Source of the DNA: Candidatus Saccharimonadota bacterium
GTDB lineage: Bacteria > Patescibacteriota > Gracilibacteria > BD1-5 > UBA6164
Length of the DNA: 32,000 nt
Assembly: GCA_965229705.1 (NCBI GenBank)
Contig: OZ245922.1
Coordinates: forward strand, 840,001 to 872,000
Direction: 5' to 3'
A model generated the notes under the pieces. That model did no database searches. It was given only the letters and a program-made list of their open reading frames with translations, and had not been told where the DNA came from. The translations under genes and the position numbers were made by a program. Positions within the stretch are counted from its first letter, which is position 1. Each line of letters begins with the position of its first letter. Shown piece after piece: positions 302 through 32,000 of the stretch.

Positions 302-1570
302 ATGCAAGAGTGAAAAAATAGAGTTTTTCTGAATTTTATCATTGTTTTGACATCTTTTTTGCTGGGATTGTGAATTTCTCATATATTCTATACACAGAAA
401 CTGGCACATAAAGATATCGAGACTCGATTTTTAGGAACTTCCTACAATCTTGATATGCAAGAGTTTTGGGATGTATATCAGCTGATATGAGATGAGTTTT
501 TTTCTCAAGATGGCGTGAAGAAACAAGACCTTGTATATGGCGCAATAGAGTGAATGGTTGCAGCTCTATGAGATGAACATAGTGAGTTTTTTTCTCCAAG
601 TGCGACAGAAAAGTTTCATACTTCGCTCTCATGAGATTTTGAGGGAATAGGAGCCGTAGTAGAGAAAGTTCCTCTTTGAGTAAAAATTGAAAGAATTTTC
701 AAAGGTTCTCCCGCAAAAAAATATGGACTCTTTTCCGGAGACATCCTGATCTCTGCAAATGGTGAGAGTCTGGTAGGCCTCGATATATTTGATGCGGTTG
801 AAAAGATCAAAGGACCTGCAGGAAGTGAGGTGATTTTAGAGATACTGAGAGTATGAGAAAGTGATATTATAGAGCGAACGGTTGTGCGGGATAAGATACA
901 TATTCCTTCGGTAGAAATAGAAGAAATATGAGAAGATGTTCTCTATATTTCTCTTAATATGTTTGGTGACTCAAGTGTGGAAGAGTTTTGAGAAGCAATT
1001 TCTTTGGCAATATCTTCACAAAAACAAGGACTTATTATTGATCTTAGAGATAATGGCTGATGATATCTCGACAGCGCTGTAAGTATTTTGTCATATTTTA
1101 TAGATACTGGAGAAGTACTGGTAGAGACAAGATATAGAAAATCTTTTCTTGGAAAGACCTATACTTCACAAAAGAATGATCAAAAATATACCGGAAAAAT
1201 AGTTGTACTCATCAATAGAAACTCTGCGAGTGCTTCTGAAATAGTTGCTTGAGCACTCAGAGAGTATCACAAGGCAATTCTTGTAGGAGAAAAAAGTTTT
1301 GGAAAAGGGTCAGTCCAAGAGGCATACAATCTCGTTTCTCAGAGTCTGTTAAAACTTACGGTTGCTCAGTGGTTCACTCCTCAAGGGAAAAACATCGAAG
1401 ATGAGGGAATACAGCCAGATATAGAAGTATTTTTTGAGTGAGAGGATTTTGAAAATGACTATGATAGACAGCTAGAGGAGGCAAAAAAAGTTCTTCGTAT
1501 GTTTCAGGTAGAAAACACTCTTTGACTTACTTTGGAGAAATATCATGAGGAGAATAGTAAAGAAGAGTAA
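302..1570 (+). CDS. S41 family carboxyl-terminal processing peptidase (Ctp/Prc-like) with N-terminal membrane anchor and PDZ region
   Basis: Read with TGA=Gly from ATG 302 to TAA 1568-1570, 422 aa. N-terminal TM NFIIVLTSFLLGLGISHIFY. PDZ-like GSPAKKYGLFSGDILISANG. S41 motifs DLRDNGGGYL (both central G are TGA), NRNSASASEIVAGAL and GEKSFGKGSVQ. In-frame TAA at 287-289 bounds the start. Confidence 0.85.
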
Positions 1571-10450: not shown

Positions 10451-11692
10451 ATGGTTATAGAAAAAATATTACAAGAACCCCTTCGAGAGAGAAACGCATA
10501 TTTAGATCGTATACAAAGCTATATTTGAAGTCCTTTGATAAAAGTACTCATTGGGCAAAGACGTGTTGGAAAGAGTAGTATCATCAAATCCCTGATACAA
10601 AATTTTGTGAAATCATGAATACCAAAAGAAAATATTTTTTATATCAATAAAGAATTGTCACACTTTGATTTCATTGAGAACTACGACGATTTGAAACAGT
10701 CTTTTTTTCATTTCTTGGATACGGGAATACAAGGAAAAATTATTATTGCCATCGATGAGATTCAAGAAATTCAATGATGGGAAAAGTTTATCAACGGAAC
10801 TCTTGCAGAGTATGGTACGCAGGCTGAGATATTTATTACAGGAAGTAATAGTTTTCTTGTATCAGGAGACTTGGCAACATACCTTACTGGAAGATATATA
10901 GAGTTTCCTATATTTCCATTGTCTTTCACAGAATTTTGTGACTTTAAAAATATTATCCCTTCAAAAAATGAATTTTATGAGTATCTCCAATATGGTGGTC
11001 TTCCTGCCATTTTTACCATGCATTACTCGCAAGAAGTAATTTTTCCATATTTATATGGAGTATATAATACGATTGTTATGAAGGATATACTGCAATATCG
11101 AGAGATACGCAATATTGATTTTTTTCAAAATTTGTACAAATATACTCTTGCAAATATTTGATCTCTTGTGAGTGCTAGCAGTATCCAAAAATACCTTCGT
11201 TCACAGCAGATAAAAATAGGAAATGACACGATATTAAATTTTTTATATTACGCATGTGAAGCCTTTGTTCTCTATAAGGTATGATCTGTAAATCCAAATA
11301 CCAAAAAATCTTTTGAAATATACAACAAATACTATGTTGGAGATCTATGACTTCGAAATGCATTAGTCGGATATGATTTCTCAAGGGATATTTGAAAACT
11401 CCTTGAAAATTACGTTTTTCTTGAACTGAAGAGGCAGGGGTATGATATTCAGATATGAAGATTAGATGGAGAGAGAGAGGTAGATTTTATTGCTTCAAAG
11501 CAATGAATAATAAAATATTTTCAGGTTGCCTATACCTTGAACGGGGAAGAAACTCTTCACAGAGAGTATGCTTCTTTGCAAGATATTTGAGATAATTGGG
11601 AGAAATATATTATCAGTATGGATGAACATAATATTTCCGAACATGAAGGAATAAAACACATAAATATCTTAGAACTAGAAAGTATTCTATAA
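10451..11692 (+). CDS. AAA-family ATPase with DUF4143-like C-terminal domain (AAA_14/DUF4143 type)
   Basis: 413 aa. Walker A GQRRVGKSS, Walker B IIIAIDEIQEIQ. The C-terminal half resembles the restriction-endonuclease-like DUF4143 fold (EVDFIA...). About 9 in-frame TGA codons. Ends TAA 11690-11692. Confidence 0.7.
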
Positions 11693-13509: not shown

Positions 13510-14067
13510 ATGTATAATGGGAATGATCTCAAAGTAGGAAAAAAATTTGTTATGGATGATATGCCATTTGAAGTTGTCTCTTACGCACAAAAAGTGATGG
13601 GACGATGAGGAAGTATCATTAATATCAAGGCAAAGAATCTTCTCAATGGAGGAACTATTGCAAAAACACTCTCAGATACTGATAAATTTCCTCCCGCAGA
13701 TATTGCCACAAAGAGTTATGACTATCTCTACAATGATGGAGAGAATTATTTTTTTATGTCTCAAGAGAGCTATGAGCAAGTCGAGCTCCCAAAATCAGCT
13801 CTTGATGGAGCTGAACTTTTTCTCAATGATGGAGATAAGGTGATGCTCCAGGAGTTTAATGGAAATCCTATTAACGTGAGTCTCGAACCGAGTTGTACTC
13901 TCGAAGTACAAGATACTCCTCCTGGTGAAAAATGAGATACCGCAACATGAGGAAAAAAACCAGCAACACTCTCTACAGGACTCGTAGTACAAGTTCCGCT
14001 CTTTATCAATGCTGGAGACTGTATCAAAATAGATACGCGAACAAAAGAATATATCTCAAGAGCATAA
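13510..14067 (+). CDS. efp: Translation elongation factor P
   Basis: 185 aa. [56 protein letters not shown] (loop glycines are TGA). Ends TAA 14065-14067. Confidence 0.9.
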
Positions 14068-14143
14068 CTTTCTCTTTGTGTGGAGATTGCATTTTTGAGA
14101 CGCAAGAATATAGTGGGAGTATTATATATGTAAAAACTGGGGT

Positions 14144-14938
14144 GTGTTTCCATTTATAGAAATAGGTTCATTATGAGTACAGGTTTATAGCTTTGGCGTA
14201 ACTTTGGCACTCTGTTTTTTCTTATTTTTATGGAATCTCGAAAGGCTCTCTCAGAGATTCGGTTATAGTTTTTCCTTCTTTTCGGGAAATATTTTTTTCT
14301 TATTTTTTTCTACATTTTTCTTCTCTCGACTTTTCTATATTATTTCAAAGTGGAGTGATATGAGATTTATTAAAAATCCTTTTGAGTTTTTTTTCATGGG
14401 AGATTTTCATCTGTCTCTTTTTTGAGCAATTTTTGGTTTTCTTCTTATGTTATCACTTCTTGCCTATAGAGAAAAATCGAGCATGGTGCGTTATATAGAC
14501 GGTGTAGTGCTTTCATTTTTTTTAGTGCTGGTCTTTTGATACATCGGAGCATTTTTGTGATGACAGGTCTATGGAAGAGAAACACTTTTTGGTATAGAAA
14601 TAATGTATACACACCCTTATAGTCCTGTACCATTTCAGGTACCTATATTTCCTCTGGCTATTGTCTACGCCATAATGAGCTTTATGGTTTTGAGTATATT
14701 ATATATCCTCTCGCTTTTTATCAGAGTAAAGGGCTTTATATGATATTTTTGACTTATAGCACTGAGCGCTATGATTTTGATATTTGAGTTTTTTAGTGGT
14801 AAGCAGGATATTCTTTCATTGATGACATTTTTTAATGTTCCGCAATTTTGTGCTCTGATACTCTGTCTGTGGAGCTTTTACCAACTTTCCCTTCTTTTTC
14901 AAAGAGATAGTGGAGAGGTGTTTCATCATATAGATTAA
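14144..14938 (+). CDS. lgt: Prolipoprotein diacylglyceryl transferase
   Basis: Polytopic membrane protein. FGYIGAFLGGQVYGRE matches the Lgt GRIGNFxNGExxGR box (three G are TGA). The frame opens at 14114 with no in-frame ATG, so GTG 14144 is proposed and the start is uncertain. TAA 14936-14938 lies 2 nt before comEC. Confidence 0.65.
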
Positions 14939-14940
14939 AA

Positions 14941-16431
14941 ATGAGAGTTCCTCTGCATATATATTTTGCAGGATTTTTGGGCGGTATTCTTGCCTGAATA
15001 TTACTTGCAAATATTTTTGTGTTTTCTCTTTTGGGACTTGTTTTTTTGCTGTGTTTTTTTTGTCTCTTCGTCCTCATATCATACTTTTTGGAAAAATATT
15101 TTTGTTCTTTGTTCTGCGTATTGCTCGTGGGATTTTCTCTCGGGCTTGGTATATCATATGTTTCTTTTGTCTCATACACAGAGCAACTTCAAGATCTGAG
15201 TATTTATACAGATGAATATTATACCTATACATCAAAAGTGCTTTCGGTACATAAGAGAGATACGTATGAAGATACCTATCTTATGGCACTCTATTCTATC
15301 GAGAATACACGATATACCTGAGTAAGACATCTACTTACCGTTCCAAAAAACTTTTCTCTTCAATATGGAGACAAGGTTTCACTGAGAGGAAAGATGTATT
15401 TTTTTGAAGATTTTGATGGTGTTTCATATCAGAAATATATGCTTTCTCAGCGGATATATTTTTCTCTCAGAGCTTCTCATATACATACGCAAGAAAACAT
15501 AGGAAATTATTTTTTTGGTCAGCTGTTCTCTTTGAGAGATACCATGCTATTACAAATTCACTCGCTCTTTCCGAGAAAGGAAGCCATATTTCTCGCAGGA
15601 ATCCTCATAGGAGCAAGAGAGGATATTCCTGATGAGCTATCAGAGGATTTCAATAAATCTTGACTGACACACTTTATTGCGGTAAGTGGTTTTAATATTA
15701 GTTTGTGTGTGATCTTTATCGTATTCTTGGTGCAGTATTTTCCCCCGTGGATTCAAAGGATATCCGTAACTCTATGTGTCACTGTTTTTACAATATTTGT
15801 ATGAATGTGAGCACCTGTTGTTCGAGCAGGGATTATGGGAGTACTTGGATATATATTTTTACAAAGTGGAAATAAAGTTAATAGTCTGGTTCTTCTCTTG
15901 TTTGCCGCAGTATGTATGAGTATATACTCGCCTTTGAGTTTGAACTATGATGTAAGTATGCATCTGAGTTTTTTGGCAGTTTTAGGTATCATCCTCACGC
16001 AAGGTTTTTTTATGAAGATTTTTTCATTTGTTCCACAGAGTTTTGCCCTCAGAGAAGCGCTGGTACTGACATGTAGCGCTTTTGTTCTGACATTGCCGAT
16101 TATGCTGTTTCAGTTTGGGCAATTTACAGCCCTTGCTCCTATCAGCAATGTTCTTGTTGCTTGGACGATTCCTCTCGCTATGCTCCTGTGAGCATGCACA
16201 CTTATTGCTGACGCTATTTGGTGACCACTGGGTTTTTTGTTTGCCTACACGACTTGGCTTTTACTACACTATGATATGATCATCGTAGAGTTTTTTGGAA
16301 ATCTTGAGTGGGCAGTGTGGCAAAGAGATTTTTGACTCTATAAAAGCTATTTTCAGGCCCTGTATTTTATAGTGATATGATGGGGTATTGCATATTTTTA
16401 TTTGCAGGAACATTTGCGTAATAAGACCTAG
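14941..16431 (+). CDS. comEC: ComEC/Rec2-family DNA internalisation channel (short form, no C-terminal metallo-beta-lactamase domain)
   Basis: 496 aa. Competence-domain motifs FNKSGLTHFIAVSGFNIS and GMGAPVVRAGIMG, with many TM helices. Track fragments 15019, 15394 and 15835 are all in one frame. Ends TAG 16429-16431. Confidence 0.8.
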
Positions 16432-17850: not shown

Positions 17851-19308
17851 CTAATCCTTGATACATCTGACTGAATATCAATACGATTGTGAAGAATCGC
17901 TACTACCAACAGTAGTATAATTATACAAAAAAAATCTTCTATAAGCCTTAGATCCATTTACCGTACTAGACCATAGATACCCATAGTACCCACGACGATA
18001 GAATTCTTTATTACTATTACTCCAACCACTCAGAGGAATCTGGAGGACTGAGGCAATACTTGTATCACTATTAGTCGTTGAGTGGTACGTCCATCACTGT
18101 CATTTACACTGGAAACTATCACTGTCTGAAGTTCTACAATTTGATCCATTCAAGTATTCTTCGAGTGTTTCCCATTCTGCTCTACTTGGTACATGGTATC
18201 CCACTCAACATACAAGGTTCGTATCATTTGCGTCTATATCATTATCATTATCCGTATCGAGAGAATCCCAAGTGTAGAACTTTCCCCATATATTATCTAC
18301 GGCAGTATCTCCATATATATTCGTTCCAGTAAACCAATCATTGGCTTTAGAGGTACTCGCCATCGTTATATCTCAAGCAGTACAGTTACTTGTATCTATG
18401 TAGTTTCCACTATAATTATAACAACCATAAGAAGAATGTACCTCTCCACTATAATTATTCGTCCCTATATCCGCATCTGTTTGTCACCACTCAAGTCATG
18501 CTCCTAGCGTCGAGTTACATCATGCCCACGTCTGTGTTCAGATAGTCACATCTGCTCTGTCACAGTTTGGGTCTTGATCTCTCCAGTCTGTAGGAGCAGT
18601 AGAAGCAGTCGTTGAACTACTCGAAACACTCGAAGTACTCGTCCCTTCCTCTCTCTCCTCCTCTATCGTCTCTCATAGATTTTCTCCTGTATCCGTTGCG
18701 GTATCATCATTTTTAAAGTAGGCAGTATAACTCTCCGTGCTTCCATCTAAATCTAACGCTCCAGCCGTCTTGACTGCCTCTATCTCATGAACGGGAGTCT
18801 TCGTTGTCTCATCAAGGAGTATTCCTAACTTTTCTCCAAATACGACTGGATAAAGATTACTATAGTCTTTATCGGCATATGCCTGAGGAAAAAATACCGT
18901 TGGAACATTTTGTTCTTCCTCGAGAAATGCCATAAGCTGAAAATCACTTTTATCTGCAGAGAGATAATACACAAAATATGAATCATCTTTTGGATCAACA
19001 CCTCCTCGACTAAAGTCGAGGATATCGAGGATATTTGCTCCAATATTTCCTTGGTATCCTAAGAGACTCGATCCGTCTTGTATCTCTACAGCGTCATCAG
19101 GCATAGGCAGATCATACTTTGTCGCGTAGAGCTCTAAACCGTCATAGATAGATGTAAGTTGAGAAAGCCTATTGGTATCTCGTACTCCTGCGAGATACCC
19201 AGAAAAAGAGACAAATCCTATAGCAGAGAGTACAGCGAGGATTGTTACTACCGTGATCAGTTCTACCAGAGTAAAACCCTGAGTTTTTTTTAAGAAAGAT
19301 GGCTTCAT
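17851..19308 (-). CDS. Type IV prepilin-like protein fused to a C-terminal FISUMP (Fibrobacter succinogenes major paralogous) domain
   Basis: 485 aa from ATG 19308 (alternative ATG 19377). Class III signal MKPSFLKKTQG/FTLVELITVVTILAVLSAIGF. Track ORF 18673..19377 stops at TGA. Read-through gives an acidic/Ser-Thr linker, then VTIGTQTWAGCNS...GYHVPSRAEWETL...GYLWSST...GYSVRCIKD, then TAG 17851-17853. Confidence 0.8.
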
Positions 19309-23917: not shown

Positions 23918-25702
23918 ATGAAAGATCACAAAATCATCACACTCCCCGTAGAACTCAGTAACCAAATAGCAGCAGGAGAAGTAGTTGAACGACCTCTTTC
24001 GGTGGTAAAAGAACTTTTGGAAAACGCTCTTGATGCAGAAGCTCATCATATAGAGATCGAGGTAGAAAATGGTGGGATTGATCTGATACGCGTAAAAGAT
24101 AATGGAGTTGGTATTCCAAAAGAAGAAATACCCAAAGCGCTCTTAAAGTATTCTACATCCAAGATATCCTCTCTCGAAGACCTTTATCGCGTCATGACTT
24201 TTGGTTTTCGAGGAGAGGCTCTTGCGAGTATTAGCTCTGTAAGCGAGTTTTCTCTCTGCTCAAAAACGCAGTGAGAGACAGCAGGAACTATAGTGCAAAC
24301 AAGCTCAGGTCATCAAGAAATATCAGAAACAGCGCACAATGTAGGAACCAGCGTAGTAGTCAAAAACCTCTTTTATAACACTCCTGCGCGCAAAGCCTAT
24401 CTCAAGACTCCCCGAACAGAATACCAAAAGATAGCTGATTTTGTTCAAAAAACAGCTCTGTGTTTTCCTCATATATCTTTTCAGCTCAGACATGATGGAA
24501 AAAATACTTTTTCTTACCCAAAAGCTAGCTCTCTCAAAGAAAGAATTCGCAGTATATATGACAGAGAGTATGCCGAGAGTATGCTCGATATTCACTATGA
24601 GTTTGCGTGAATAACTCTTAGAGGGTACATTAGTGATCCAAAAATATTTTATACCAATAAACAAAAACAGGTACTATTTGTGAACAATCGTTATATACAT
24701 TCCCCTATGATATCCAAGGCTATTATAGATGCATATAATAGATTTATTCCTCCTGGGAAATACCCTGGCTATGTGCTCTTTCTCGATATTGACCCTACAC
24801 AGATAGATGCAAATGTGCATCCAAGAAAAATGGAGATTCGCTTTGCGGCAGAACAACAAATATATAGAGCCTTTTATCACGCACTGAAAGACCGACTCGA
24901 AAAAGTGAGTCTTTCTTCATCATTTCATACTGAAACTACCATACAGGATACTTCCCTTTGAGAGAAAATTTCTCATAAAAAAAATACTCCTCTCAAGTAT
25001 CATACCGGTTCGGGGACACGCTTTAAAAACTATTCTCCATACACCAATACACTTCCTCATCCTACCCAGAATGCAATAGAATTTACAAAAAATATTCTTC
25101 AAGATTCGAAAAGTTCCGAAGCAATTTTCCCAAAGAATCCAAAAATAGGAAGAGTCCTCTGACAGCTGCATCACTCTTATATCGTGGTAGAAACAGATAC
25201 AGGACTCAAAATACTCGACCAGCATGCACTGGCAGAAAGAGTTATCTATGAAAAACTCTCACATTCGTCCTATACACCAAATACGCAAAAACTTCTCTTT
25301 CCTACAGAAGTTCATCTCGAAGGCGCTGAGCAAGAACAGTTAGAGCAATATAGTGATATGTTTGTCTCTATGTGATTTCAGATACACTGGCAGTGAGATA
25401 TCTTGGAAGTAACAGAAATTCCTGACTTTGTTTCAAAAAATAATATAGAGCAACTGATAAAAAATATTCTGTGAGATATGACGAGCGTGGGATCAAAGTC
25501 TCTGGAAGAAATTCGACATAAGATGTGGGCATATACTGCCTGCCGAAGTGCGATCAAGTTTGGTGATCCTCTCACACATTTTGAGATGGAAAAACTTTTA
25601 GAAGATGCGAGTATACATTATTCTTCTACTTGTCCTCATGGCAGACCAGTAGTGTATGAAGTCAGTCTTGATGAGCTAGCGAAAAAGTATGAAAGAGAGT
25701 AA
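23918..25702 (+). CDS. mutL: DNA mismatch repair protein MutL
   Basis: 594 aa. GHKL ATPase motifs [42 protein letters not shown]-terminal [11 protein letters not shown]...[16 protein letters not shown] (G=TGA), [18 protein letters not shown]. Confidence 0.93.
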
Positions 25703-25710
25703 AAAAATAT

Positions 25711-26103
25711 CTATCTATATATCCATGGAGCTATAGCATTGAGAATTACTCATGAAAGCATAAGTATTACCAGTCCTATGAGCGTTTTGGTAATTCTGTC
25801 CTTGGCGCTTGTTTTCAGACCATCATTTAGCCCAGCCATAGAATACAATATTCCGTTTATTACAATAAATAGCACACAGGCAAGAGATGTAATATAGGTA
25901 AAATACTTTATCACTTCTCCAGCTACGAGCATCACGCTCTCAAATCCTGGTTGTATATTACAGGTATAGATACCCTTACTATCAGGCTCCTCATAACAAT
26001 TTGCTCCAGGGATAGGCTCGGTTACCTGTACCTCTACTGCTCATACCTGAAATGCAAAACAGAGGCAAAGACAATATACAGAGAAAAGAAGAATATTTTT
26101 CAT
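25711..26103 (-). CDS. T4SS-type pilin (TrbC/VirB2-like, CPR/Gram-positive T4SS pilin family), single module
   Basis: 130 aa. Signal peptide MKNILLFSVYCLCLCFAFQ, TM1 YITSLACVLFIVINGILY, loop SMAGLNDGLKTSAKDRITKT, TM2 LIGLVILMLSGVILNAIAPWI. Starts 16 nt after the upstream gene stop. Ends TAG 25711-25713. Confidence 0.65.
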
Positions 26104-26118
26104 AATGATTTTTTAGTA

Positions 26119-27024
26119 TTAAATAGTTGCCAAATCAAGTAAAAATGTGTATGCCGCAAGCAAAATCAGCGTTGCAAGTATCGTACTCACAACAATACTC
26201 TTTGCTTTTTTGACTTGCTCTTCTTCACCGTTTGATCCAACATAATAGTATCCTGCAAGTGTCAGAAAAAATATGGCAACAGGAGCGGCAAAAAAGAGAG
26301 CAAGGTTTGCAAGAGACTCAAAAAGGTTGATACCAGACTCTATACTTCCTCAAAAAGCGACTCATTTCCATGCTTCTATGATCCCGACAAATACGAGAGC
26401 AAGAATCGTGTATATCAGTTTTTCTTTTGCTTCTTTCATGCGGTCTTCTCGTCATCTTGAAGTTACGAGAGTTACTCCTGCGAGTGTCAGAAAAAATACA
26501 GCACCTGCAAATATCGCAACCTCAAGAAAAAGGACAATCTGATCATTAAGCGTATTTTCAAATACAAAAAAATCAAAAAGGATATTTCCCGAACTTTCAG
26601 TAGACTCTTCTCAGAAAGCGTCATCTGATATTCGTGATCCAACACGGGTTGTTCCATCTTTATAAAAAGCTTCATAGAGGGTTCCTGGTATATTGATAAA
26701 TATGAGTGCTATAAGAGCATACCAGAGTTGTCTTTTGGATCCCGAGAGTTGTTCTTCATCAGACCCCATAGACATAACCATCATTGCTCAGGCATATACG
26801 ATATAGATGATCATCACTGCCATGAGTATCCATTTTACAAAAGCGAGAATAGAAAACCCTGTATTACTTACATCTTGTAAAGTGTTTCCTGATGTAGGGA
26901 TATCTAGAGAGGCATCGCGTATTTCACTTGATCCTGGGATATTAACGACTCCAGCGTTTGCAAGCTCTCCTCCAAGCACTAAGAGTGAGAGGCTGAGGAG
27001 TATGAGGAGGATTATTTTTTTCAT
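26119..27024 (-). CDS. Membrane protein made of three tandem T4SS-pilin-like modules (signal peptide plus 3x [TM-acidic loop-TM])
   Basis: 301 aa from ATG 27024 (alternative ATG 27057), checked codon by codon to TAA 26119-26121. Loops are MSMGSDEEQLSGSKRQLWYALIALIF, LVTSRGREDRMKEAKEKLIYTILALVF and YYVGSNGEEEQVKKAKSIVVSTILATLIL. The track shows only 26788..27057. Confidence 0.65.
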
Positions 27025-27190
27025 AGTTTGGAAAATATTTTGAAATATTTGTCTCATTATAGCATAACTTTTCTCAATACACGAAAGGATACAAAAAAAA
27101 CCTGAAAATAAAAATTGACATATAAAAATAAAAATATATACATCCTTTCAAACAAAAACACAACAACTCAAAAATGAAAGGGACTCAAGA

Positions 27191-27490
27191 ATGGGGATTA
27201 TTTTGATTCTAGTAGGAGGAGCGATAGGATTTTTTATCCTAGGATTTGCGCTAGCGTATATAGGATATAATTTTTTTTCGAAAGCTTCTATAGGGCTTTC
27301 AGCTATTGCAAGCGTAATTTCGTTTGCGATGAGTTTATATTTTCTTCCTTATGAAAATAAGGAGTCACCCGGTTATGAAACCTTTCCATCATATAATGAT
27401 AATGGTGGTTACTACAACCATCAGGGAAATGGTTATTACCATTTGGGTAGACACCGCTATATGATAGTGGGACCGTATATCAAAGAGTAA
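27191..27490 (+). CDS. Small membrane protein with Tyr/Gly/Asn-rich tail, hypothetical
   Basis: 99 aa with two TM helices, then PGYETFPSYNDNGGYYNHQGNGYYHLGRHRY. Has its own promoter-like TTGACA-16 nt-TATACA (27114-27141) and a terminator. Lies opposite to the surrounding pilin genes. Confidence 0.5.
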   Translation: MGIILILVGGAIGFFILGFALAYIGYNFFSKASIGLSAIASVISFAMSLYFLPYENKESPGYETFPSYNDNGGYYNHQGNGYYHLGRHRYMIVGPYIKE

Positions 27491-27528
27491 TTACATTAAT
27501 TATCTTTTTGATACACTCAACATAGGAA

Positions 27529-27550
27529 GGGGCCTTTAGGTCCCTTTTTT
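27529..27550 (+). terminator. Rho-independent terminator of the 27191-27490 gene
   Basis: ggggcc-ttta-ggtccc (one G-U) followed by T6. The T run overlaps the stop codon of the convergent minus-strand gene. Confidence 0.6.
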
Positions 27551-28538
27551 ATATCACTCCTTCAGGACGCAAGAAAAATGTGAGTATGAGATAGTTGAGA
27601 GCCAGGATTACCAGTCATACAGCAATATAGATAATAGACTGTTTTCACTTTTTGATTTTTTCCTCGTCTCCACCAGAGAGTAGTATCTGAGACCCTGCAT
27701 ACATGATCATCAACAGCACTACAAGAGCCACAAAACCATTAAACCAATTTATTAACATTATTACGATATTGATTCATTCTGATACATCAGCCTGATTGAC
27801 ACATTTTCCTCCATCAACCACAATAAACCCGTTTCCGTAATCTTCACAGTTTATCTTTCCATAAAATGCTTCTACCACCTCTTGCGCAAAACGCACGATA
27901 AGAAAACCTATCAGTGCATAAACAATAGAATTCTTAGAGTTTTTGATAGCTTCCTCATTTCCATTTGCAGTAACAAGAGTATAAAAGGCAAAGACCGCAA
28001 TCGCGATAAAGAAAAGAGATACCAGCGTTTGCAAGAGAGCTATCAAGGGCATCACAATATAATCCATAAATCCAACAGCGGTATACGCTGAAACCCCCTT
28101 ATCATATCATACCGTGACAAAGGCGTAGGCAACCTGCATAATGATGAGTCATACACTGATCCATATGATCCCTTTTTTAAAGTTTCCTAGCTCTTCTTCG
28201 CTATTGTTTGAAAAAATAAGCTTGAGAGTAATAATCAAAAAATACACACTCGCAATCATATAAAATAGATTTTTTATATCTCGAGCAAGTCGGATAAGCG
28301 TATTATAGAGTCATTCTCATCATCATTTACTTACACTGATAAATTGATCATTTTCATCAAAGTCCTTGAGCTTATCATTTTTTCGAGCACTACTCGATTC
28401 ACTCCCATCAACACTTCCGATAGAAAGATTATTTGCCTGAGAAAACAGACGATTATCAGCGCTTGCTTCTCAGACAAAAGAAACATATACCAACATCGTG
28501 CATATGACAAACAAAAGAGTGATAAGTATTTTTTTCAT
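27549..28538 (-). CDS. Membrane protein made of three tandem T4SS-pilin-like modules (signal peptide plus 3x [TM-acidic loop-TM])
   Basis: 329 aa, checked codon by codon from ATG 28538 to TAA 27549-27551. Signal MKKILITLLFVICTMLVYVSFVGEASA. Loops are LIFSNNSEEELGNFKKGIIWISVGLII, TLVTANGNEEAIKNSKNSIVYALIGFLIV and QILLSGGDEEKIKKGKQSIIYIAVGLVIL. A Cys pair lies in the second inter-module loop. Confidence 0.65.
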
Positions 28539-28611
28539 AGGTATTATATCTCTAAACATATATACTGAGTATAACATAAGGTGTTTTTATAAGCGAGTAT
28601 TGAGAATTGAC

Positions 28612-31437
28612 TTATGATTTTTCATCTTCACTCATAATTCCAAGTCGCGCTTCTATCTCTATATCGACATATTTTTTCTTTCGTCCATATTTTTTTCGTG
28701 AGTACTCTTTGATGATAGCAGCTGCCTTTGGATTTTTATAGGTATTGTCCCAAATAGTCTTGAGATCAAACGGTCGAGTAGTAGCGTTGTCTATATTGAG
28801 CTTACAGTAGGTAGTGAAGTTGGCAATTCCTATGATGTCCTGCTGAGAAAGCAGAGGAGCGTATTCTTTTTCCATATACTCAGCATCATCAGCACCAACC
28901 TTAAAAGATTGTATGGTTCCAGCATTTCCAAATACGGCATCTTTGATAGAGGGCTTATCCCCTGTTCGTGCACCATTTCCTCAGATTTGCGCAATAAACT
29001 GATGAGCCATGATCAGAGCCAGTCGATATTTTCGGGCTTCTGAGAGTATTTCTCCAAAAGTTTCTGTGGCAAAGTTTTGGAACTCATCTACATAGAGATA
29101 AAAATCTTTACGCTCAGACTCATCAATATCAGCTCGACTCATAGCTGCCATATTGATTTTTGATACAAATATCAGACCAAGGAGCTGAGCATTGAGAGCC
29201 CCTATTTTTCCTTTTGAGAGATTTACGAGCAGGATTTTTCGGTTATCCATGACTTCGCGAAGATTAAAAGCAGATTTTGGTTGACCGATAATGTTACGAA
29301 TCGTTGAATTGGTGATAAATGGTCAAAATTTTGCAGAAAAGTAGGGAATCATTTCTTGTTTTTCTCTATCACCCGTATTGGCATATTCATGGTCCCAAAA
29401 GGACTTAACGACAGGATTTTTGAGATTACGAGTTTTGTATTTCATAAACGCTTCATCAACGAAGAGTCGTGGAACATCGATGAGTGTTCCTCCATCTTCT
29501 TCATCTTCCATAAGTGTCAAACATCCGTTACGAAAGTAGTGTTGTATACGAGGTCCAAATATTTCATCACCAAATATTTTGATAAATATTTCTGTTGCAT
29601 CAAGCGCGGCTCTATCCATTTCTCTTTTGCGAATTTCAGGATCAGAAGAGATGATATCGAGCATGTTCATTCCCATAGGTCTTTCGGTATCAGAAGGATC
29701 AAAGATGATAACATCTTTTGCTCTTTCTTTTGGGACAAAGTCGAGCACATCTTCGACGAGGTCTCCGTGTGGGTCGATAACGCAGAGTCCATCACCATTC
29801 CAAACATCTTGCCGTGCAAGGTATCCGATGTAGACAGATTTTCCTCATCCAGATTTTCCAATGATATATTGGTGTCTCCCTCTATCTTTTCGTGAGAAGT
29901 ATATTGGTGTTTTTTTATTGCGGTACTCATTCCATCCAAGAAGTACTCCATCTTTGTAGACAGGAAACCCTCAGAGGTGTCGATGAACAAGCTCAGTTTT
30001 TCCAGTTTTTTCATTTTTTTCTTCGAGCATTGTTGCCTGCGACGGAGATTTGAGATTGTGAGGAACAGGGAGTTTTTTGTACTCGAGCCAGCTGATAATA
30101 GGAGACTTATTATAGTTAATATCTGGCAGATGATAGAGCGTTGATGCTTCATCAGCTGAAAAAATAGATATATTTTGAAAAAATCCTACGAGTTTATGGC
30201 GAAAGGCAAAATGTCGACAAGGAGTAAATATCCATGGCATAGAGTCTTCGTATATTTGAGGATTATCAAGAGCATTGTTGTACTCATCAGTAAAGATACT
30301 TGCAGCTGCTACAACAGCATGGACAGCATTTTCAGATTGCTTATGAGTTTGAGATGAAACAATAATACGAATAGAGCTCTCAAAAGATGGCTGAGCAGCG
30401 GACTCTCCCATGATTTTATGAGCTTCTGTCTCTGCCTGATTAAATATTTTATACGCGTCTCACTCACTGGCTCATGGAGCGTTGTTTCATCAGACCATAT
30501 CTTCGGGCCCTTCTATCATCGCAACAATAGGATTCCACAGAAAACTCAGAGGCTTAAAAAATACTCATAAAAGTCACATTTTTCGTCATTTTTTATATTT
30601 TCCTTTTGCGACTTGTCGAGCAGCGCGAAGAGCTTTTTTATTCCATCAAGAGTTAGTGGGTTTTATCACAACTTGGTATACGGCTTTATCTGCTTTATCG
30701 AGTCCTCCAAAAACATTGGTAAAGTTATTGATAGGATCATCTTCGAGGTACTTAAATGCTTTTATCGGAAATACATCGTCATGCTCTTTTCAGAGAGATG
30801 CTGCTCGCATATGATAGCCTTTTTGTGCAAGATTGATATAGTCTACTTTATCAACTTTTTCAATTTCGGCATCATTATAGATAGAGGTAATATGTTGAGA
30901 GACAAGATTGACATAGTTTTCGTAGGTAACAATAAAAAAACTTACTTCGCCATTTTCATATACGAGCTCGAGGGCGATTTTTGAGTGTCCAAAGAAAAAG
31001 TTGAGGAGTGTGTCACGCAGTCCTGCCTCGGAGAGTTTATGGATCGCTTTGTAAAACATCGACATTTGTCAGATCTTTTCCTTAAAATCTTTTTTTGTTT
31101 CTTTTTCTTTATCGAGTTTTGAGTCTGCTCTCGGAACAGTGATCTTGAGGTAACGGAGATTTTTAGAGTACCAGAGCTCAAAACCAAGTCTGATAGACTT
31201 GTAGAGTATGAAGAGTAGCAGAGCCCAAAACAGGAGCTGCAGGATGAGATATCCTACCTCATTCATCAGACCTCAAAAATCCATGGAAAAGAGTCAGTCT
31301 CACCCCTCAGAACTGTCTGCTTGTTTTGGTTCACTACTGCCCACTTGTTGCTCGATACTTCGACCAAGAGCAGCCTGAGCTTTGGTGTATCATATACAAA
31401 ATAGAGCGATACAAATGGCAAAATACTTCAATTTCAT
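28612..31437 (-). CDS. VirD4/TraG/TraD-like type IV coupling-protein-family P-loop ATPase with two N-terminal TM segments and a large uncharacterised N-terminal domain
   Basis: 941 aa single frame joining track ORFs 31069, 30790, 29971, 29323, 28981 and 28612, with no TAA or TAG between them. Signal/TM1 MKLKYFAICIALFCIGYTKAQA, TM2 YLILQLLFWALLLFILY. Walker A IIGKSGGGKS (a G is TGA), VIDPHGDL, Walker B FYLYVDEFQNF, TraG-D_C-like RKYRLALIMAHQFIAQI...FGNAGTIQSFKVG. Confidence 0.75.
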
Positions 31438-31662: not shown

Positions 31663-31692
31663 TTGTATACAATGTAAACATTAGTGTATAAT
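31663..31692 (+). promoter_or_regulatory. Candidate promoter/operator of the toxin-antitoxin pair
   Basis: TTGTAT (31663-31668), 18-nt spacer, TATAAT (31687-31692). The -35 lies inside the palindrome TTGTATACAA. The -10 ends 10 nt before ATG 31703, which implies a near-leaderless mRNA. Confidence 0.4.
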
Positions 31693-31702
31693 TTTTAATG
31701 AA

Positions 31703-31945
31703 ATGAACCCAGCAAAAGACACCGTTGTATCTTTTCGTATTCCTGCAGAAAAAAAGCAATTTCTTACAAAAATAGCAAAAGAGTATAAAAGAACCCCAGC
31801 TTCACTTATGCAGCAAGGACTGGACTATGTATTTGAAAATTATGAGATGGAAAACTCTATAACTCTTGCGAAAAGAGTAGAAGAATCACGAAAAAGTAAG
31901 ACTATTCCTGCTCAGCAAGTATATGAAGAACTCGGGTTGTTATAG
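31703..31945 (+). CDS. Type II antitoxin, ribbon-helix-helix type (RelB/DinJ/ParD-like)
   Basis: 80 aa. N-terminal VSFRIPAEKKQFLTKIAKEYKRTPASLMQQGL fits a beta-strand plus two helices RHH fold. Its stop lies 2 nt before the next ATG. Confidence 0.6.
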   Translation: MNPAKDTVVSFRIPAEKKQFLTKIAKEYKRTPASLMQQGLDYVFENYEMENSITLAKRVEESRKSKTIPAQQVYEELGLL

Positions 31946-31947
31946 CG

Positions 31948-32000
31948 ATGTGGAAATTGCAGTATACAGATAAGTCAAAAGACGATTTTAGGAGAATTGA
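31948..32000 (+). CDS. Probable RelE/ParE-family toxin, 5' fragment truncated by the window edge
   Basis: MWKLQYTDKSKDDFRRI resembles RelE/ParE N-termini (xYxIxFTxxAxKDLKKL) and is tightly coupled to the antitoxin. Only 17 codons are visible. Confidence 0.45.
   Translation, partial: MWKLQYTDKSKDDFRRI

Follow-up and report, generated by a model that had tools for sequence, protein, structure and literature searches.

Introduction

Type IV secretion systems (T4SSs) encoded on the chromosomes of Patescibacteria were described between 2020 and 2025, including those of S. epibionticum ML1 (SEML1_0006-0019) and N. lyticus TM7x. A survey of 3,035 Patescibacteria genomes (PMC12102498, 2025) reported a phylum-specific VirB4 clade nested in the monoderm mating-pair formation class MPF-FATA, VirB2-like pilin arrays of 2-11 separate genes, and relaxases that are nearly absent from the phylum. 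The same survey listed 5,713 homologues of type IV coupling proteins (T4CPs), 148 of them near virB4, and its authors wonder whether the T4CPs have been exapted. Epibiotic growth of S. epibionticum, the one species tested, requires the T4SS cluster, including its series of pilins. Here we analyzed a four-gene locus in a 32,000-nt stretch of a Candidatus Saccharimonadota bacterium of the GTDB lineage Gracilibacteria; BD1-5; UBA6164 (GCA_965229705.1, contig OZ245922.1, positions 840,001 to 872,000; the window), an organism that uses genetic code 25, with UGA read as glycine. The locus, called the cassette below, encodes a coupling-type ATPase of 941 aa and three pilin-family proteins of 329, 301 and 130 aa (pilins 1, 2 and 3). 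We propose, with a probability of about 0.68, that it is the ATPase and pilin half of a split, chromosomal, conjugation-derived T4SS of the Patescibacteria type. It is a lineage-specific variant with fused pilins and not a new kind of machine.

The locus resembles the chromosomal systems of Patescibacteria in its chromosomal position, the lack of a relaxase, the multi-copy pilins of family PF18895 and a coupling-type ATPase that usually lies away from virB4. It departs from these systems in that its pilins adjoin the coupling-type ATPase rather than VirB4, that two three-unit fusion proteins, in place of separate genes, account for six of the seven pilin units, and that a SpoIIE phosphatase stands between the ATPase and VirB4 in sister lineages. 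The likeness to MPF-FATA (PrgJ and PcfC of pCF10) lies in the VirB4 of the relatives, which matches PrgJ with an E value of 5e-44, and in the single-membrane envelope. Pilin 1 also exceeds the NCBIfam cut-off of the Mbov_0395 family from Mycoplasma integrated conjugative elements (ICEs; 45.6 bits against a cut-off of 40). Unlike MPF-FATA and the Mycoplasma ICE, the locus has no relaxase, oriT or mobile-element context, and PcfC gave no phmmer match to the ATPases. Gram-positive conjugation systems are generally without pili.

The archaeal Ced/Ted systems (CedA1 pilin, CedB and CedD ATPases), in which two related ATPases work together (PMC9905601), are likewise compact, domesticated, conjugation-derived and relaxase-free, and they also combine VirB2-like two-helix pilins with an ATPase that has a transmembrane (TM) anchor and an extra N-domain, a resemblance of architecture only. 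However, our locus has no CedA/VirB6-like gene, its motor is VirD4-like rather than HerA/CedB-like, and it is known from its genes alone, whereas DNA import is known for Ced. With the canonical VirB/VirD4 systems (R388 Trw, Ti VirB) it shares the fold of the ATPase C-domain, TrwB as the best sequence match in the PDB, and Sec-processed hairpin pilins like VirB2/TrbC, the last through a weak PF04956 link. It differs from them in the lack of genes for an outer-membrane core, VirB5, VirB11 and a relaxase, in the 370-aa domain between anchor and motor, and in the concatenation of its pilins. In classical systems, T4CPs are dispensable for pilus assembly, yet modulate it.

An earlier note on this stretch, made from its letters only, knew of no functional characterization of such a locus. 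This holds for the ATPase-pilin cassette; the Patescibacteria T4SSs introduced above have been described, with a pilin array that is essential in a Saccharibacterium. In the literature, we found no report of concatenated T4SS pilins and, within that on Patescibacteria T4SSs, no description of the DUF8128 domain of the ATPase; the Vampirococcus paper makes no mention of a T4SS, and a metaproteomics paper on Gracilibacteria refers to "type IV secretion" in generic terms only. Four features appear to be unreported: that ATPase and pilin form a conserved pair, that pilin units are fused, that a SpoIIE gene lies in the ATPase-VirB4 operon, and the DUF8128 domain with a possible VirB4-like fold.

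Linkage of the ATPase and pilins to VirB4 in relatives

When PrgJ, the VirB4 of pCF10, was searched with phmmer against all open reading frames (ORFs) of the fetched loci (labeled L), L008 and L010 were each found to have a true VirB4 (E 5e-44), located two genes downstream of their ATPase. Both loci carry an operon of ATPase, SpoIIE phosphatase and VirB4 with a divergent ComM gene on the other side of the ATPase, and this arrangement was seen again in L087-L089 and L097. The order ATPase-SpoIIE-VirB4 was further present in L099-L103, L118, L134, L141 and L153. In L133, both halves of the system stand together, in the order ComM (divergent), ATPase of 969 aa, a triple pilin with three T4SS_pilin matches (8.9e-22), RadA, a 119-aa protein, SpoIIE and VirB4 (P-loop_TraG 3.8e-25). 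The domain calls in L133 were confirmed by Pfam, and L164 has a similar cluster.

A metagenome scan revealed four arrangements among the code-25 relatives, namely 3+3+1 pilin units, which is that of the window's clade, one triple pilin (many loci), ATPase-SpoIIE-VirB4, and unsplit. The ATPase and the first triple pilin are adjacent in most of these relatives. In a neighbor-joining tree of the ATPase, the window's clade was monophyletic, and its sister clade held the other three arrangements in an interleaved fashion. The simplest reading of this series, based on gene order and tree, is that one orthologous ATPase is present per genome and that the ancestral cluster ran from the ATPase and a triple pilin to SpoIIE and VirB4. 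In the window's clade, this cluster would then have been split, with VirB4 left elsewhere in the genome and pilins 2 and 3 added to give 3+3+1 units. We also considered that every genome might carry window-type and VirB4-linked ATPases side by side as paralogues; orthologues with rearranged neighborhoods agree better with the tree and with the mixture of arrangements, but are not proven by them. No VirB4 was present within 10 kb of the cassette in the members of the window's clade that were examined, and no single assembly holding both VirB4 and the cassette was found, as there was no shared GenBank accession series and the samples differed. VirB4 is nevertheless listed as present in the cassette-bearing genome GCA_010119145.1 (Table S1, PMC12102498). 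Outside the code-25 group, the linkage of ATPase and pilin was seen in 3 of about 79 loci with our own pilin hidden Markov model (HMM), which has a limited reach, and this is not beyond chance.

Several genes recur around these loci. A membrane-anchored PP2C/SpoIIE phosphatase lies directly upstream of VirB4 in every code-25 VirB4 locus examined (L087 5775-11941; L088; L089; L097; L133 15801-19128), which hints at phospho-regulation of the secretion system. The ComM-like gene, of the Mg-chelatase family, divergently adjoins the DUF8128 ATPase in the sister clade (minus strand in L087 4055-5569, L088 1966-3486 and L133 8219-9745; also in L089 and L097), and the RadA gene of L133 occupies 13900-15378. 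DNA-processing neighbors (ComM, RadA, MutL, ComEC) are recurrent yet variable between lineages. Just downstream of VirB4, a conserved protein of 305-313 aa is encoded (L087 11934-12854; L088 9802-10719; L089 9938-10879), whose hydrophobic N-terminus (RGSALLVGLIIVVLL...) is PilX/pseudopilin-like and which Pfam did not match.

Conservation of the cassette

The four genes occur in the same order and at nearly the same sizes in the window and in L001 (GCA_010119145.1), L002 (GCA_050252855.1), L006, L007, L023, L090-L096 and the metagenome loci L121, L123, L136 and L145-L147, so that the gene neighborhood is conserved across many code-25 relatives. The MutL-L19-GatA-ComEC flank of the window is also present in L001 and L002, and DnaE takes the place of MutL in L090 and L091. 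The cassette is therefore a conserved chromosomal operon in one code-25 "Gracilibacteria" clade, with at least two flanking contexts, and the observation is far beyond chance. Compared with the window's proteins, the orthologous ATPases were 72-83% identical and the orthologous pilins 36-62%. This pattern is the one expected of a conserved cytoplasmic motor and surface-exposed subunits and, as far as sequence comparison can tell, reflects purifying selection. In L009 (2467-5243), where the ATPase belongs to the window's clade (77-82% identity), the place of the pilins is taken by a GT2 glycosyltransferase and an uncharacterized protein; the contig ends within this ATPase gene, so its pilins may lie elsewhere.

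The coupling-type ATPase

By sequence, the ATPase is best described as a VirD4-type motor with an extra N-domain, whose intact P-loop motor is closest to VirD4, TrwB and DotL. Pfam assigned residues 505-858 to T4SS-DNA_transf (PF02534; 2.7e-12, 46.7 bits, cut-off 20.1; profile positions 44-381 of 468), with weaker matches to DUF87/HerA (2e-5) and TrwB_AAD_bind (1e-4). TrwB alone was matched when the protein was searched against the PDB with phmmer, and a profile of 112 homologues matched TrwB (4e-7) and DotL (8e-6) but no VirB4 among the PDB sequences. The Walker A lysine and the Walker B Asp-Glu are invariant across these 112 homologues. VirB4-type profiles (P-loop_TraG PF19044, AAA_10, CagE_TrbE_VirB) did not match the ATPase at E values up to 0.1, while the true VirB4 proteins of the relatives match PF19044 at 1e-24 to 1e-25. 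The T4CP equivalogs of NCBIfam (CD1115, TraD, TraG-Ti) reached at best 34.8 bits against a cut-off of 250, in the Walker A region only, and the CedD model reached 16.7 bits against a cut-off of 600.

A domain of about 370 aa (aa 97-470), DUF8128, parts the membrane helices from the motor, so that the direct junction of anchor and motor usual for a T4CP is not found here. In the AlphaFold2 (AF2) model of the ATPase (pLDDT 85, pTM 0.77), two helices at the N-terminus precede an alpha/beta domain of mixed type (about aa 97-470), which is followed by a RecA-like domain whose insert at about aa 600-720 is all-helical. With Foldseek, the C-domain was aligned with TrwB (E 1e-11, TM-score 0.62), Cag-beta and HerA, with HerA-NurA also among the matches. 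For the whole model, the best match was full-length TrwK/VirB4 (E 1.7e-14 over about 1000 columns), although the TM-scores were low (0.26-0.32). This match over the full length, from one end to the other, suggests that the ATPase is more than a plain VirD4, and the statement in the earlier note that the locus encodes no VirB4-type ATPase holds by sequence and is qualified by the predicted structure. In hhalign comparisons with the VirB4 of Gracilibacteria, homology was confirmed for the C-domains (probability 94%) and not found between DUF8128 and the VirB4 N-domain (0.1%); the ATPase profile against the single sequences of PrgJ and PcfC gave about 2-3% for both and was uninformative. A VirB4-like fold of the DUF8128 domain is therefore suggested by the model, not established.

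The family is widespread. More than 120 database homologues at 70-85% identity are all from "Candidatus Gracilibacteria", each with a precomputed DUF8128 (PF26449) N-domain. The family spans the phylum, with 19,386 representative clusters matched at E values up to 1e-3, and full-length matches at 33-52% identity come from Peregrinibacteria, Uhrbacteria, Saccharibacteria, Woesebacteria, Berkelbacteria and others. Two DUF8128 ATPase genes lie within 10 kb of each other in L108, L109 and L151, so deep paralogues of this ATPase exist.

The fused pilins

All three pilins start with a Sec-type signal peptide. In pilins 1 and 2 it is followed by three fused VirB2-like helical hairpins, and in pilin 3 by an extracellular segment that contains two conserved cysteines and by one such hairpin. 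Seven hairpin units are thus present, six of them fused three by three, which gives pilins 1 and 2 six TM helices each beyond the signal peptide. Pfam T4SS_pilin (PF18895, cut-off 26.6 bits) matched three stretches of pilin 1 (8.8e-17, 61.4 bits), three of pilin 2 (1.5e-12, 47.8 bits) and one of pilin 3 (2.3e-8, 34.4 bits), and it was above the cut-off in all 58 homologues of pilin 1. Together with PF02534 and the code-25 ORFs, these matches confirmed the four proteins and the T4SS affiliation given in the earlier note; an assignment to other families was not borne out by the profile searches, in which the ATPase went to T4CP profiles and the small proteins to PF18895.

Hydropathy and sequence indicated a signal peptide followed by two-helix hydrophobic hairpins with a short charged loop, and the loop motif G-[DN]-E-E-x3-K-x-[AG]-K aligns all seven helix-loop-helix units, whose mutual identity is 10-31%. 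The pilin 1 orthologue from L001 was modeled by AF2 (pLDDT 69, pTM 0.50) as a bundle of three helix-loop-helix hairpins. Conserved cysteine pairs occur in the linkers between hairpins and in the N-terminal part of pilin 3, where the pair is visible in the window, L001, L002 and L090. Their location in the linkers fits an arrangement in which the linkers are outside and the charged loops inside, later facing the lumen. TrbC/VirB2 (PF04956) matched three of the 58 pilin-1 homologues, best in P0283 (4.5e-5, 24 bits, below the cut-off of 27.9). Foldseek with the triple-pilin model returned no solved pilin from the PDB, only generic helical-bundle noise (best E 1.3), and a profile of 34 pilin units matched no pilin among the PDB sequences. 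While a VirB2/TrbC-like pilin has a single hairpin, pilins 1 and 2 have three per chain.

The lone triple pilin beside the ATPase in sister lineages is 31-39% identical to pilin 1 and 24-26% identical to pilin 2. On these identities, pilin 1 is the orthologue of that protein and probably the ancestral partner of the ATPase. Pilin 2 is specific to the window's clade, its length of 297-301 aa being kept in L001, L002, L006, L023 and L090 (42-62% identity), and the orthologues of pilin 3 have 128-155 aa (49-61% identity). On the minus strand of L023, three extra single-unit pilin genes directly follow the cassette (14915-16076). In L042, a triple pilin (902-1855) lies immediately upstream of a distant DUF8128 ATPase (36-38% identity).

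Genetic code and gene models

The ORFs of at least 100 aa in the window add up to only 2,847 aa when table 11 is used, but to 15,551 aa with table 25. The ATPase gene has 18 UGA sites, at which glycine occurs 41 times and tryptophan twice among 13 homologues from standard-code organisms, and site 705 is glycine in 13 of 13. Because the standard-code homologues carry mostly glycine at these sites, comparison across them indicates that UGA is read as glycine (code 25) in the source organism, as the earlier note had assumed. Under this code, the four cassette genes are genuine.

Public translations of these genomes have in many cases been made with code 4, with tryptophan for glycine at UGA sites. 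The window's own genes are in the database as P0001 and P0274, with tryptophan at every UGA site; the Walker A of the VirB4 P0394 is written "KSGWGKS" in the public translation, and the consensus of alignment A1 is likewise affected. Since tryptophan is placed at glycine sites, apparent identity is lowered and motif analyses are possibly misled.

Proposed model and alternative explanations

The split reading is based on three findings: sister lineages cluster the orthologous ATPase and first triple pilin with a true VirB4 (L133, L164), the ATPase lies two genes from VirB4 in other sister lineages, and the published survey lists VirB4 in a cassette-bearing genome. Between the two options left by the earlier note, a very reduced apparatus or part of a split system, the second is thus supported and the stand-alone version is not. 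In the model that we propose, the pilins would be inserted by Sec and their signal peptides cleaved, and each hairpin would sit in the membrane with its K/E-rich loop in the cytoplasm and the cysteine-bearing linkers outside. A VirB4-containing base would then extract the pilins and build from them a pilus or conduit, short and heteromeric, that crosses the single-membrane envelope toward a host cell, the fusions setting a 1:1:1 ratio and the neighbor order of differing pilin paralogues. The DUF8128 ATPase would form a membrane-bound hexamer at the base and would either supply the channel with a substrate, be it protein or nucleic acid, or gate a switch between pilus growth and transport, as conjugation T4CPs do. 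By analogy with Saccharibacteria, interaction with a host bacterium would be the likeliest biological role.

Some points weigh against this reading. The co-occurrence with VirB4 in the window's clade comes from one published table entry, and no VirB4 was seen in the 32 kb of the source genome that the window covers. Candidates for VirB3, VirB6 and VirB8 were identified in none of the loci examined. The ATPase tree is a simple neighbor-joining tree, from which orthology of the clades is favored over paralogy without being proven. The proteins are assigned as pilins by the names of their Pfam and NCBIfam families and by a single weak link to TrbC, with solved pilins unmatched. The T4CP homologue of S. 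epibionticum is not essential (PMC12102498), so the ATPase family may act outside T4SSs. On the other side, the conserved pairing of the ATPase with pilin 1, together with the variable linkage to SpoIIE and VirB4, argues that the family is a T4SS component and not an "exapted" orphan.

It is also conceivable, though rather unlikely, that the locus is a stand-alone minimal machine, in which the DUF8128 ATPase itself extracts and polymerizes the fused pilins and/or moves DNA without VirB4, like archaeal Ced/Ted DNA import. The end-to-end alignment of the full-length ATPase model with TrwK/VirB4, at a better E value than with TrwB, would agree with this, as would the order of TM helices, N-domain and ATPase, which is that of CedD, a protein with a VirB4-like N-domain that is required for DNA import. 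Adjacency of ATPase and pilin is retained in most lineages while that of VirB4 is not, and the neighbors often act on DNA (ComM upstream, RadA in L133, MutL and ComEC near the window's cassette). However, a separate true VirB4 is present in the clusters or operons of sister lineages and is reported in a cassette-bearing genome, DUF8128 lacks sequence similarity to the VirB4 N-domain, the TM-scores to VirB4 and the score of the CedD model are low, and the DNA-related neighbors differ between lineages. A doubtful extension would take the DUF8128 ATPase and the concatenated pilins as the working unit, whose VirB4-like N-domain and VirD4-like motor build a heteromeric conduit from linked three-unit pilins for DNA or nucleotide traffic with the host, a bacterial counterpart of Ced for which VirB4 is dispensable or serves a separate step; if so, the recurrent neighbors ComM, RadA, MutL and ComEC would be meaningful. 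Partly compatible with the split reading, but unlikely in itself, is the proposal that the triple-hairpin proteins are not filament subunits but a six-TM membrane platform or channel replacing VirB6/VirB3, with the 130-aa protein as the only true pilin, if any. The six TM helices of each long protein and the bundling of hairpins by AF2 at modest confidence would fit a platform, polymerization of concatenated pilins is not known, and VirB6/VirB3 candidates were seen in none of the loci examined; VirB6 was also found to be scarce or absent in Microgenomatia and GTDB-class Gracilibacteria, which are two other classes (PMC12102498). Against a platform, all seven units share the pilin-family signature and the loop motif, both ends of each hairpin would point outward, so that the linkers would be compatible with a pilus lattice, and other Patescibacteria carry the same family as arrays of single-hairpin genes by virB4, which are read as pilins.

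Two further explanations were disfavored. That the locus is a decaying remnant of an ICE with no current function is strongly disfavored and very improbable: the four ORFs are intact, the ATPase is kept at 72-83% identity across species with invariant catalytic residues, the housekeeping flanks are common to species, and the GC content equals that of the window, where no integrase, relaxase or repeat boundary was found. These features outweigh the membership of the pilins in a family common to Mycoplasma ICE proteins, the possible toxin-antitoxin pair next to the locus and the insertion that interrupts the cassette in this genome. Hardly credible, too, is an FtsK/HerA-type motor for another process, accompanied by unrelated membrane proteins that merely resemble pilins. 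The weak DUF87/HerA match and HerA-NurA among the fold matches point in this direction, and short hydrophobic hairpins are prone to spurious matches; yet the best sequence and profile matches of the ATPase are T4CPs, the pilin matches exceed curated cut-offs in 58 of 58 homologues, and the genes physically cluster with VirB4 in relatives.

Although the locus reveals no new class of machine, the clade-wide fusion of three pilin units is natural "Rosetta stone" evidence, which suggests that differing paralogues are direct neighbors, in fixed ratios, within a single assembly. A heteromeric pilus or conduit is thereby predicted, and structural modeling and cryo-EM gain a defined target. The fusion also bears on the use of pilin paralogues by a T4SS that is essential for epibiotic growth in the species tested. 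The natural series of split and unsplit gene orders further allows inference of which parts work together.

Genomic context of the cassette

The features of the window and the layout of the ATPase are given in Table 1. The gaps between successive genes from the ATPase to pilin 3 are 73, 524 and 15 nt, so the short intergenic gaps of the earlier note apply to two of them, and the third holds an ORF on the opposite strand. The equivalent gap in L001 and L002 is 12-15 nt, and the ORF is missing from all relatives examined. Neither the interruption nor its ORF gave a Pfam, phage, Rfam or tRNA match, no flanking repeats of note were present, and promoter and terminator scans remained at background level. 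The interruption probably divides the cassette into two transcription units in this genome.

Table 1. Positions of the cassette genes and other features in the window, with the domain layout of the ATPase.
Feature	Position	Strand	Description
ATPase gene	28612-31437	minus	941 aa; 18 in-frame UGA
ATPase layout	aa 1-22 and 49-96; aa ~97-470; aa ~500-935		Hydrophobic helices; DUF8128; VirD4/TrwB-type nucleotide-binding domain
Pilin 1 gene	27549-28538	minus	329 aa; alternative upstream ATG at 28577 gives 342 aa
Interruption between pilin 1 and pilin 2	27025-27548		524 nt; lineage-specific
ORF inside the interruption	27191-27490	plus	99 aa; two TM segments; Tyr/Gly/Asn-rich tail; convergent with pilin 1
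Pilin 2 gene	26119-27024	minus	301 aa; alternative upstream ATG at 27057 gives 312 aa
Pilin 3 gene	25711-26103	minus	130 aa
mutL	23918-25702		Abuts the cassette
Type IV pilin-like gene	17851-19308	minus	485 aa; N-terminal methylation motif fused to Fibrobacter "Fib_succ_major" domain
comEC	14941-16431		About 9 kb from the cassette
AAA_14/DUF4143 ATPase gene	10451-11692	plus	Between EF-G and RNase Y
Ribbon-helix-helix-like ORF	within 31685-32000	plus	80 aa; DUF6290 E 0.003; followed by the first 17 codons of an ORF cut by the window end

The remaining genes of the window, about 21, are housekeeping genes (S41 protease, SHMT, fmt, EF-G, RNase Y, EF-P, Lgt, ComEC, GatA, L19, MutL). Profile scans found no VirB4, VirB6, relaxase or peptidoglycan hydrolase within the locus, as the earlier note had stated, or beyond it in the window, and no relaxase was present in any flank examined. 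The positions given there for mutL, comEC and the type IV pilin were correct. Its toxin-antitoxin neighbor, divergent from the ATPase gene, is plausible but unproven, as the claim depends on one weak DUF6290 match and a gene that is cut by the window end. The type IV pilin-like protein is unusually large for a pilin and carries a putative binding module. Genes of the AAA_14/DUF4143 kind are often found in mobile or defense contexts, and the one in this window lies among the housekeeping genes.

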